A DNA stretch of 63,388 nucleotides, filler included, from Reticulomyxa filosa (Eukaryota > Protista > Foraminifera), in NCBI GenBank assembly GCA_000512085.1. It is 17 parts of 17 records of this genome, joined end to end, with 100 filler letters (N's around TTAATTAATTAA, not from the genome) between each part and the next. Parts side by side here need not be neighbours in the genome. Positions count along the whole stretch, not along the records: positions 48,073 to 50,813 come from ASPP01030539.1; 16 more parts are not named here. One strand, given 5' to 3'. Both the position numbers and the translations under genes were made by a program. Position 1 is the stretch's first letter. Every line of letters begins with the position of its first letter. Below, in pieces: positions 47,926 through 50,913 of the stretch. The notes under the pieces were generated by a model that saw only the letters and a program-made list of their open reading frames with translations, was not told the DNA's origin and made no database searches.

Positions 47926-48073
47926 TTTATATACATACATATATGTATATATGTATACGTATTTTATCCAGGNNNNNNNNNNNNNNNNNNNNNNNNNNNN
48001 NNNNNNNNNNNNNNNNTTAATTAATTAANNNNNNNNNNNNNNNNNNNNNNNNNNNNNNNNNNNNNNNNNNNNG

Positions 48074-48319
48074 CGCCTCTGGACCGAGGGTCCCGTCCTG
48101 GAAGTCGAGCACGGCATCCCCGCCCCGGTGCGCCAGGGCCTCGAAGCCCGCGGCCACACGCTCAAAATCATGCCGACCGTGGCCGGCGGCATGAACGCCA
48201 TCCAGTTCCACGACGACGGCACCCTGACCGGCGCCGCCTGCTGGCGCGCGGATGGCACGGCGGCGGCGCTGGGCGGTGGGCTTGCGCGTGCGGGGGTGAG
48301 GTTCGTGTTGCCGGGGTGA
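48074..48319 (+). CDS. ggt: Gamma-glutamyltransferase, C-terminus (5' truncated)
   Basis: RLWTEGPVLEVEHGI..LEARGH..GGMNAIQF..LTGAACWRADG, the GGT small-subunit end. Strong GC3 bias. Confidence 0.85.
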   Translation, partial: RLWTEGPVLEVEHGIPAPVRQGLEARGHTLKIMPTVAGGMNAIQFHDDGTLTGAACWRADGTAAALGGGLARAGVRFVLPG

Positions 48320-48393
48320 TTGCACTCGCCAGTTGCGTTACAATTGCCAATACAAGATGCAAGTCCGTTTCATTGCCTAGTCTGGAAGCCACG

Positions 48394-49548
48394 ATGTTGG
48401 AACTTGAACTACTTTCGATAGATGTCGATGATCGACTTCAGGCTATCTGCGTCACTGCTCGAACAACCTACAGGTGGTACCTCTCTGCGACTGAAGGTGC
48501 AGAGGACAATTTGTCCATTCAACGGAAGATCATTGGCGGAAGGAAGTCATACCAAACCCTTCGCGCTGACCTAGCTAGAGGGTGTGTTCTTCCTCCTATT
48601 GTACTGGCCACGAAAAACGTCTCGGTGCCGAACGAGGTTACGTACAAGAGCATCAAGACCCATCCCAAGCTCACTAGTTCGACTCGCGCAAAGCTCATGT
48701 CCGCCCTGGTCAAAGCAGGTCAGGCTGACTTCTACATTGTAGACGGCCTCCAACGAACCAATGCCCTTCGACAAGTCCGGCAGAGTCTCGACGAAGACGA
48801 ACAAGCCGAGTTCCTCGACAGGCCACTGCGGGTCGAGATTTGGCTCAATGTATCTTTCGGCGCTCTCGCTTATCGTATGCTCCTACTAAACGCTGGACAG
48901 CGACCCATGTCCATCGCGCACCAAGTTGAGGTCTTAAGCACTAAGCTCGCAGAAGACTTAAGCGACATCGAGGGAGCAGAGATCTTTACCAAGCGCGACT
49001 CAAGACGCCGAGTACAGGCAGGCCAGTTTGCTCTGGCGCGCGTTTCCCAAGCATTCCAAGCTTGGCTACAAGGGCAACCAACTCTCGACATTCGCAATAC
49101 AGTGATGGAGCAATTGCTGGCCGAGTCGGCGATAGAAACACTTGGTCAATCACTATCCGGGCCAATGAAACGAGTAGACAGAGATGAGTTTCACGACTTC
49201 TTCCGGTGGATAGTCGAACTCGATCACGCGATTGACGATGAGCATCGTGAGTTTCTTGGTAGCGAGACAGTCCTTCAGGGGATTGCAGCTGCATTTGGGA
49301 ACGTGACGAGGAATTCAGATCATAGATCCAAAGCCCGTAAGGCTTCGCAAAGACTTTTGGCACGCCAACAAAAGAAGGGGGACGCGCTAGGGATCGAACT
49401 GTTTGACCAACTAAGAGGAGGAATTGACGCGAAGCGTCAGAATGTTGGTGATGCCACCAGAGAAATGGTTTTTCGCGCATTCGAGGAGTATCTGCGAAGC
49501 GGCGGAAGCAAACCCATGGAAGAATGCTGGAAGTATGGCGCGCGGTAG
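48394..49548 (+). CDS. ParB/Srx-fold protein, DUF262/DndB(DGQHR)-like N-terminal domain plus unknown helical C-terminal domain (384 aa from ATG 48394)
   Basis: Ordered motifs IQR ... LPPIVL ... YIVDGLQRTNAL ... LLLNAGQRPMS match the QR / DGQxR / xxxN signature. GGAAG lies 5 nt upstream of the ATG. Confidence 0.8.
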   Translation: MLELELLSIDVDDRLQAICVTARTTYRWYLSATEGAEDNLSIQRKIIGGRKSYQTLRADLARGCVLPPIVLATKNVSVPNEVTYKSIKTHPKLTSSTRAKLMSALVKAGQADFYIVDGLQRTNALRQVRQSLDEDEQAEFLDRPLRVEIWLNVSFGALAYRMLLLNAGQRPMSIAHQVEVLSTKLAEDLSDIEGAEIFTKRDSRRRVQAGQFALARVSQAFQAWLQGQPTLDIRNTVMEQLLAESAIETLGQSLSGPMKRVDRDEFHDFFRWIVELDHAIDDEHREFLGSETVLQGIAAAFGNVTRNSDHRSKARKASQRLLARQQKKGDALGIELFDQLRGGIDAKRQNVGDATREMVFRAFEEYLRSGGSKPMEECWKYGAR

Positions 49549-49554
49549 ACGGAT

Positions 49555-50667
49555 ATGCCGTCCCCAATTCCAGGCAGGCTGGCCGCCCTCAGCCTGATTA
49601 CAGCACCCGGCGAGAATGAGAATAGTTCGAATCATTCGGCCGACGATCTCATTGAAGCCCTCTCAGCTGTTGCGACAGCCATTCGAGTCGAGTGGTCTGA
49701 AGAGCTATCTCAAGAAGTCCGGCGCTGGCTGGACAGCGAAAAGTCGCCTCGCATTACCGCATACCGAAGTCAGTCTCCGGTAGCCAGCTGGTCCGTCCAG
49801 TCGGTTACGTTGTCTGGGCGAGAGGTCGCCCGCATTCTGCGGACGCCGCTAGCTACCGAGGAAGCGCGAGTTCCGTCGGCCGGACAAGAAATCGTGGTGG
49901 GAGCGTTTTTGTTTTGCAAGGACGCAGCGTTTGTTGACCTTTCAATAGAACCGAACCAGATTCTAGTTCACTGGCTGCTGGCCGATGGGATAGGGCCTGA
50001 ACTAGAGGGTCTTGTTGTTGCGGCAGCTGGCGCGACAGGGCGCGATCAAATACGCCACCAAAACACCACCGCGCTTGCTCAACAAATTGAGCTCGGCGAA
50101 AAAATTTCCCGACGGCCATCCCACGAACTCGGCTTCCTGACAGAAGCGTATCGCTCCATATGGGCAGCAGGAGAAGTTCGATGGCAGTATCTAAGCGTCT
50201 ATAGGATTTTTGAGCATGCATGGCTGCGCACCATATTCGATGAGCTCAACAGGGACTTCATGCAGAGTCCAGACATAGCCCTGAAAAGCGCAAACGAAGC
50301 GCTGGCATCTGAAAGAGCGCAATTCGAAAAAGCTGTCGCAGCGCATGACGTTAGGGCTGAATTCGAAGAATTCAGGAAGAAATTCAAAGTGCTTTTAGCA
50401 ACAAATAGATTCTGTTGCGCCATCGATAAGCGAGTCAGCCCTGATAAGGCCAGCCATGCTAAGGGAGAAAAGCCGGATTCTGTGAAAGGAGAGGAGTGGC
50501 GAACGGGTGTACGCATTTGCTATCAGATTCGGTGCGCCATCGTACACGCAGGCGCAGCCGGGCCCTACTACGAGAACTTCAACGATGCTGACAGCGCTGT
50601 TGGTCAGCTACTCCCCAGTTTGGAATTCGCCATGCAGAAGTTTATAGGTATTGCTGTTAGCTCTTAG
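49555..50667 (+). CDS. HEPN-domain protein (putative RNase effector), ApeA/MAE_28990-like C-terminus, 370 aa
   Basis: YLSVYRIFE helix (about 50188-50214) and CYQIRCAIVHAG with Rx4H (50530-50547). Starts 6 nt after the upstream stop. Confidence 0.72.
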   Translation: MPSPIPGRLAALSLITAPGENENSSNHSADDLIEALSAVATAIRVEWSEELSQEVRRWLDSEKSPRITAYRSQSPVASWSVQSVTLSGREVARILRTPLATEEARVPSAGQEIVVGAFLFCKDAAFVDLSIEPNQILVHWLLADGIGPELEGLVVAAAGATGRDQIRHQNTTALAQQIELGEKISRRPSHELGFLTEAYRSIWAAGEVRWQYLSVYRIFEHAWLRTIFDELNRDFMQSPDIALKSANEALASERAQFEKAVAAHDVRAEFEEFRKKFKVLLATNRFCCAIDKRVSPDKASHAKGEKPDSVKGEEWRTGVRICYQIRCAIVHAGAAGPYYENFNDADSAVGQLLPSLEFAMQKFIGIAVSS

Positions 50668-50718
50668 CTCACTTCTTGAAGGTCCGTTTCCAGCGCTGGG
50701 CGGCGCGTCTCCTATCTT

Positions 50719-50811
50719 TCAATGAAACACCCGCCCTGAATCGATCACCAACGTCTGCCCGGTCGTGCTGTTGGTTCGGCACATCGTGACGACCTGGTCG
50801 GCGCAGTCGTC
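50719..50811 (-). CDS. Short-chain dehydrogenase/reductase, C-terminus (5' truncated)
   Basis: Read manually: DDCADQVVTMCRTNSTTGQTLVIDSGRVFH*, the SDR TGQxxxxDxG terminus. Confidence 0.75.
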   Translation of the reverse strand, partial: DDCADQVVTMCRTNSTTGQTLVIDSGRVFH

Positions 50812-50913
50812 CTNNNNNNNNNNNNNNNNNNNNNNNNNNNNNNNNNNNNNNNNNNNNTTAATTAATTAANNNNNNNNNNNNNNNNNNNNNNNNNNNNNNN
50901 NNNNNNNNNNNNN

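Follow-up and report, generated by a model that had tools for sequence, protein, structure and literature searches.

We analysed a window of 63,388 nucleotides (nt), filler included, from the Reticulomyxa filosa assembly GCA_000512085.1, in which 17 contigs are chained by N44-TTAATTAATTAA-N44 joiners. Positions 48394 to 50667 hold a two-gene operon that, to judge from profile matches, is almost certainly Dazbog (dzbA-dzbB), a two-gene system against phages that already has a name. A separate contig (ASPP01030539.1) carries the pair; it is real bacterial DNA and has the following features:

48394..49548, plus strand: dzbA (open reading frame 1, ORF1), 384 residues from its ATG, with a DUF262-like ParB/sulfiredoxin (Srx) fold and a helical C-terminal half
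49555..50667, plus strand: dzbB (ORF2), 370 residues, with an alpha/beta, poorly conserved N-terminal half (about residues 1-184) and a predicted HEPN domain (about residues 185-366)
48073..50813, no strand: bacterial contig of 2,741 bp with 55% guanine plus cytosine (GC), from a contaminant or an associated alphaproteobacterium, recognised by its joiners, its GC content, the identity of its flanks and a wastewater contig
48074..48319, plus strand: 3' end of ggt (gamma-glutamyltranspeptidase), a host gene and the left border of the cargo site (Pfam G_glu_transpept, expectation value (E) 0.004, weak on this fragment)
50719..50813, minus strand: 3' end of a short-chain dehydrogenase (SDR) gene, a host gene and the right border of the cargo site, with 94% nucleotide identity to the SDR end in locus L065

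An earlier, sequence-only reading of the window had placed two co-oriented ORFs 6 nt apart between convergent genes. Both ORFs were indeed found on the plus strand with this spacing, and the flanking genes were identified as ggt and SDR, whose 3' ends face each other. The motifs it had named were also located, namely QR (residues 43-44), LPPIVL (66-71), DGLQR (117-121) and LNAGQRPMS (165-173) in ORF1, and YRIFE (216-220) and RCAIVH (326-331) in ORF2. The proposed drop in GC relative to flanks of about 70% holds on the left, where the ggt fragment reaches 73.6% (third-position GC 0.90) versus 52.1% in ORF1 and 53.8% in ORF2 (third-position GC 0.53-0.54), but not on the right, where the SDR fragment has 60.0% over 95 bp. 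ORF1 also has an in-frame GTG further 5', at 48316, which overlaps with the stop codon of ggt, but the alignments of homologs begin at the ATG. No sigma-70-like promoter was found in a promoter scan of the locus, and the terminator-like sites (6 versus 2.7 +/- 1.5 in shuffles) were not convincing. Because the pair sits on a 2,741-bp contig, the visible flank is limited to 247 bp and 95 bp.

When both ORFs were searched against the 5,027 models of PADLOC 2.0.0 (with E<=1 as the threshold, instead of the system-calling thresholds of PADLOC), the sole matches were DzbA for ORF1 (E 9.4e-93, 309.6 bits, profile positions 2-387 of 393) and DzbB for ORF2 (E 7e-11, residues 200-365, profile positions 196-335 of 341). 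The N-terminal half of ORF2 is left unmatched by the DzbB profile. All 13 members of an alignment of ORF2 relatives (A1) match this profile, with a best E of 7e-57, and the relative in genome G002 covers its positions 31-337. By its sequence, the copy is divergent from known Dazbog members, and ORF1 shares 28% identity over 229 residues with the DzbA of a Bacillus cereus plasmid. In NCBIfam there were sub-threshold matches only, including DpdB (E 0.064). The idea of a novel defence system was rejected, since both ORFs match Dazbog profiles, and the statement that the pair fits no named system fails likewise; identity with a described system was one of the outcomes that the earlier reading itself had named as refuting it. 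PD-T4-2 is a second named system listed with DUF262 and HEPN. The more general description, a ParB/Srx-fold (DUF262-like) protein with a probable HEPN protein in a conserved, self-contained two-gene unit, was borne out.

ORF1 was used as a query and found 58 loci, 12 in genomes and 46 in metagenomes. Eight of them were set aside for having less than 1.1 kb of downstream DNA, three of these still with a partial match. In all of the 50 remaining loci a DzbB homolog lies directly 3' of dzbA. Among these 50, 48 match the A1 profile, 47 match ORF2 alone, and L054 and L055 match the PADLOC DzbB profile; ten are exact duplicates, and the remainder consists of 37 distinct full-length A1 matches plus L054, L055 and L006. 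The last of these is a decaying copy (L006:5728-7900), in which the dzbA frame stops at 322 residues and dzbB has a frameshift and is split by a transposase-like ORF (labelled by eye). Thirteen plasmid records were matched, and all four examined, one from Bacillus cereus, have DzbB after DzbA. A search of phage records for DzbA gave no match. ORF1 has 446 relatives at E<=1e-10. Restriction-modification or defence-type neighbours were present in 13 of the 38 loci with a neighbour to scan (11 near-duplicates removed, no background control). At L022, L023, L080 and L081, the Dazbog homologs have a C5 cytosine methylase of the host as neighbour, accompanied by Vsr, MvaI/BcnI or NgoPII.

ORF1 carries a DUF262/ParB-Srx domain whose putative site comprises Q43-R44, D117-G-L-Q-R121 and N166-A-G-Q169. 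The DGLQR, QR and NAGQ motifs are retained in at least 98% of 122 DzbA rows, an alignment with 52 invariant columns of 417. Structural matches of the ORF1 model include BrxU and SspE, while Foldseek found nothing at E<=0.001 in the PDB. Sequence searches of solved structures with ORF1, ORF2 and alignments A1, A2 and A4 gave nothing significant.

The C-terminal domain of DzbB very probably has a HEPN fold, and DzbB is predicted, with fair confidence, to be a ribonuclease (RNase). Conservation was assessed on 40 rows, and the ORF2 model was built from 13 rows (predicted local distance difference test score, pLDDT, 80.7). A word-based protein search reached two and then four DzbB relatives. Invariant residues of the domain are R217, E220, E253, Y323, R326 and H331. 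The R-x4-H motif formed by R326 and H331 is kept in 40 of 40 rows and in the four plasmid DzbB proteins; it stands at the end of a predicted helix (residues 314-330), and the R-x4-H of the Bacillus cereus protein is in register with it (hhalign probability 72, E 3e-5). The whole alignment has 7 invariant columns of 560, and in the N-terminal half of ORF2 conservation per column runs at about 23-32%. The residue after the Arg is Cys in 38 rows and Asn in two, and Asn in three of the four plasmid homologs; E220 is invariant, but within YRxxE and not Ex3[KR]. In the account of the Rx4-6H motif that defines it for HEPN domains (PMC3710099), a polar residue after the Arg and an upstream Ex3[KR] are typical, but not universal.

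In a VIA structural comparison of ORF2, 13 of the 15 top rows had the HEPN fold, with low scores. Eleven of these, which are minimal-domain and Csm6 rows, start within residues 185-194; the AbiA row starts at residue 156 and a further Csm6 row at residue 39. Every one of them reaches to residues 365-370. Neighbours of residues 185-370 in the language-model Atlas are two MauJ clusters (one at 0.94, where 29% of members carry MauJ, and one at 0.93, where 52% do) and HEPN_Apea at 0.84. Weak Pfam matches were to MauJ in 6 of the 13 A1 members (best 1e-5) and, in the plasmid DzbB homologs, to HEPN_Apea (E 0.004) and RiboL-PSP-HEPN (E 0.07); a profile comparison of DzbB with ApeA or MauJ, which drew on few reference sequences, gave no significant match. 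As for published annotation, the listing in PMC10952713 has Dazbog under DUF262 only and that of 18 HEPN systems in 10.1101/2024.10.26.620412 does not contain it; an annotation of DzbB may stand in figures, in preprint supplements or in the journal version of Millman et al.

The behaviour of Dazbog is in print for a Bacillus mycoides member only. The GOE9 system shows an abortive phenotype, turns toxic with the cytosine methylase of phage SPR, and is escaped by phages that lose CCGG methylation; its first gene has DUF262 (Stokar-Avihail et al., 10.1101/2022.08.27.505566). According to a review (PMC10952713), mutation or deletion of the DUF262 gene abolishes defence, and a figure legend of Millman et al. 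(10.1101/2022.05.11.491447) states that a dzbB deletion was not transformable, "possibly due to toxicity". Given this failure, DzbA may be toxic by itself. We do not favour the suggestion that ORF1 keeps a toxin encoded by ORF2 in check, because loss of DUF262 abolishes defence and the untransformable mutant is the dzbB deletion. The published trigger must be narrower than any 5-methylcytosine, because the homologs at L022, L023, L080 and L081 coexist with host C5 methylases.

We favour, at a probability of roughly 55%, a mechanism in which the Dazbog operon acts by abortive infection, with DzbA as the sensor and DzbB as the HEPN RNase effector. DzbA would detect phage-methylated DNA or the action of the methylase through its ParB/DUF262 nucleotide-binding domain, provided that the trigger in this lineage is the same as in B. 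mycoides. Activated DzbA would then switch on DzbB, perhaps by direct contact, and DzbB, as a predicted HEPN RNase, would cut host RNA, so that the infected cell arrests. DzbB would also restrain DzbA before infection, e.g. by forming a complex with it in which nucleotide turnover or DNA binding is limited, a restraint that would be required because the dzbB deletion was untransformable. The HEPN prediction would supply the killing step of Dazbog, a system whose mechanism the reviews PMC12409349 and PMC12926258, in their statements on it, describe as unclear.

Several observations weigh against this mechanism. The dzbB deletion result conflicts with a plain scheme in which a DzbA sensor activates a DzbB toxin, and it argues for an inverted toxin-antitoxin pair, which we regard as unlikely. 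Here DzbA would be both sensor and toxin, a ParB-fold nucleoside triphosphatase draining nucleotides or collapsing the nucleoid on methylated DNA, and DzbB would be the antitoxin, which would either bind DzbA or use its HEPN site to cleave RNA of the operon itself. Whereas dzbB could not be deleted, loss of the DUF262 gene is viable and only defence is lost; ToxB, a ParB-fold adenosine triphosphatase toxin, is described (10.64898/2026.05.05.722872); DzbA is far more conserved than DzbB (52/417 versus 7/560 invariant columns); and, among the differences listed to a wastewater strain (see below), there are 14 synonymous and 2 non-synonymous changes in DzbA versus 4 and 8 in DzbB. However, a binding-only antitoxin would need neither R326 nor H331, yet both are found in every row and in every plasmid homolog examined. 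The antitoxin is, moreover, usually the first gene in toxin-antitoxin dyads (PMC3710099), and the transformation failure is a single figure-legend line. L006, with its broken dzbB, does not decide the question, because its dzbA also looks frameshifted.

Also on the opposing side, the DzbB profile matches ORF2 at residues 200-365 only, as might be expected if the trigger or target differs here. It could be a phage protein, a DNA modification of another kind or, by analogy with ApeA, a small nucleotide that binds to the N-terminal half of DzbB, which is variable. The low conservation of this half, where six of the eight listed amino-acid changes fall up to residue 189, points the same way, as do weak Atlas leads to ApeA_NTD1 clusters (0.80 and 0.78, at chance level), the activation of ApeA by deoxydinucleotides between its N-terminal and HEPN domains (10.64898/2026.01.26.701840), and the Dazbog homologs that live alongside host C5 methylases. 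We nevertheless find a different trigger or target rather improbable, as DzbA matches the family along its entire length with 310 bits, other DUF262 systems sense modified DNA (10.1101/2022.08.27.505566), and no test in this analysis pointed to another trigger. As to the motif itself, an R-x4-H arises in 46% of ORF2 shuffles; alone it is therefore at chance level, and its conservation is what counts. Foldseek of the ORF2 model gave no match at E<=0.001 in the PDB and none in BFVD, and the best VIA matches, besides their low scores, include MtlR and substrate-binding HEPN domains, some without the motif. These results would suit a structural, non-catalytic helix, with DzbB as a non-enzymatic partner and a different route of killing, but we give this very little credence: both catalytic-type residues are invariant though the rest of DzbB is about 25% conserved, and inactive HEPN families tend to shed the motif (PMC3710099). 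The predicted HEPN site offers two residues, R326 and H331, that bear on which Dazbog protein kills.

The 16 other contigs of the window have 25-38% GC and look eukaryote-like by eye. Since a bacterial contig with 55% GC stands among them, the source assembly carries bacterial contamination. The flanks on this contig are 93-96% identical to the closest genomes, which belong to one genus and were drawn from the class of genome G003 (Sphingopyxis by its record, and presumably a member of the Alphaproteobacteria); genome G573 was found among 401 genomes of this class. The G002 family was discarded as a source of the host, its best match having an E of 1e-4. In G573 (locus L065), the end of a 561-residue ggt has 96% amino-acid identity to the ggt fragment, and the complete SDR gene is adh_short (E 3e-54). 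Parts of the stretch occur in 20 runs from 11 studies, mostly wastewater or sludge according to their records, with no RNA run listed among them. Four runs were compared: a wastewater contig of 3,562 bp spans the whole 2,741-bp contig with 50 differences and zero gaps, and a 2,501-bp contig from a second run crosses both borders. Among the 40 differences listed, 28 lie inside the ORFs. The amino-acid-heavy change in ORF2 would fit selection that is relaxed or diversifying in the N-terminal half of DzbB, the numbers being small. A chimeric assembly is ruled out by the wastewater contigs. A eukaryotic gene, or a transfer into a eukaryote, is out as well, given a separate contig between joiners, bacterial flanks and the same arrangement in wastewater contigs.

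In G573, the stops of ggt and SDR are 167 bp apart (L065:1747-1913), with flanks 94% identical to those at 48073-50813. From 114 genomes of its genus, 20 intervals were chosen in which both flanks are close on one contig; two with genes arranged otherwise were dropped and G573 was included, giving 19 sites (L109-L126, L065) that are not a random sample. Five are empty (162-174 bp, palindromic repeat), two hold housekeeping cargo (RND efflux, dehydroquinase), and 12 hold low-GC cargo of 0.4-4.3 kb. Half of these 12 have defence-type family matches: a Panacea antitoxin; an adenine methylase with a DndB-like protein; UvrD with DarT and an ADP-ribosylglycohydrolase; NACHT; a CAP12-type TIR (PDC-S35); and a PDC-S15 fragment. 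No integrase was present among the cargo ORFs scanned at the 19 sites, DzbA was found in none of the 114 genomes (positive control 3/3), and in wastewater contigs other sequences branch off the same ggt end. These contents mark the ggt-SDR gap as a site of variable cargo with an enrichment of defence-type genes, and Dazbog is a rare passenger there. The empty alleles (L065:1747-1913; L123-L126) each carry a palindromic repeat of about 165 bp, of one or the other of two kinds, which we take to be REP (repetitive extragenic palindromic)-like. Cargo appears to replace the repeat, and the repeats may mark a recombination site.

Some of the cargo deserves separate mention. In G711, L111:438-4185 holds three genes, for a D12-class adenine methylase, a 508-residue DndB/DpdB-like protein (DGQHR) and a 447-residue protein with no Pfam or PADLOC match, a cassette that resembles the ParB, methylase and HEPN operons of PMC3710099. 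In G710, L112:517-4288 is one operon of a UvrD-like helicase, a DarT-like ADP-ribosyltransferase and an ADP-ribosylglycohydrolase, i.e. a DarTG-like pair with a helicase. Orphan low-GC ORFs without Pfam or PADLOC match, which are candidate defence genes, lie at L114:521-2211, L115:355-2356, L116:352-1272, L118:471-1070 and L122:367-642; an R-N-x3-H was noted by eye in L115 (327 residues) and L118 (199 residues). For a single alphaproteobacterial genus, the site gives a small set of genes that are candidates for a role in defence.

The discovery value of the pair is low, since the system is already known; what is added to Dazbog is the predicted DzbB HEPN site, its conflict with what was reported for the dzbB deletion, and the cargo site between ggt and SDR. 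A joint reading, which we put forward tentatively and hold to be doubtful, would make Dazbog a mutually restraining pair, in which DzbA, a ParB-fold nucleoside triphosphatase, is toxic without its partner, while DzbB, as a HEPN RNase from a family without a name so far, both silences it and executes abortive infection on phage-methylated DNA, and would make the ggt-SDR gap a defence hotspot that lacks an integrase and has undescribed systems among its orphan cargo (L111, L114, L115, L116, L118).

Among known systems, PD-T4-2 (Vassallo et al. 2022) is likewise a multi-gene anti-phage system listed with DUF262 and HEPN (PMC10952713; 10.1101/2024.10.26.620412), but neither ORF matches a PADLOC PD-T4-2 model at E<=1 and its HEPN is PF18735, unmatched by ORF2, so membership was rejected. 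GmrSD, BrxU and SspE share the ParB/Srx-fold domain with a DGQQR-type motif. They combine DUF262 with a DUF1524 HNH and restrict DNA directly, whereas the pair here is two genes without HNH/DUF1524 and the tested Dazbog acts abortively; as no member of alignments A1 or A2 had a Pfam match to the DUF1524 HNH at E<=0.1, GmrSD was rejected too. The ApeA/MauJ-like HEPN proteins, which provide the nearest named Atlas clusters and the weak Pfam matches of DzbB, have the same plan of a variable N-terminal region and a C-terminal R-x4-H HEPN, but ApeA is a single-gene system (members found, about 450-600 residues) and DzbB is always paired with DzbA in the loci examined. In the ParB-HEPN neighbourhoods of Anantharaman et al. 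2013 (MAE_28990, RiboL-PSP-HEPN, Saro_3948), a HEPN gene is likewise in an operon or fused with a ParB-like gene; MAE_28990 operons include a DNA methylase, absent here (PMC3710099), and ORF2 has no Pfam match to any of these three families. With Dazbog itself (Millman et al. 2022; Stokar-Avihail et al. 2022), compared here through its profiles, the copy, known from sequence alone, shares gene order, similar sizes (profiles of 393 and 341 positions), a DUF262-like first gene with a full-length DzbA match, a DzbB match in the conserved C-terminal half and a stand-alone operon. It differs in its divergent lineage, its alphaproteobacterial host and an ORF2 N-terminal half that lies off the DzbB profile. 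A mutually restraining pair, if true, would be unlike plain sensor-effector or toxin-antitoxin systems.
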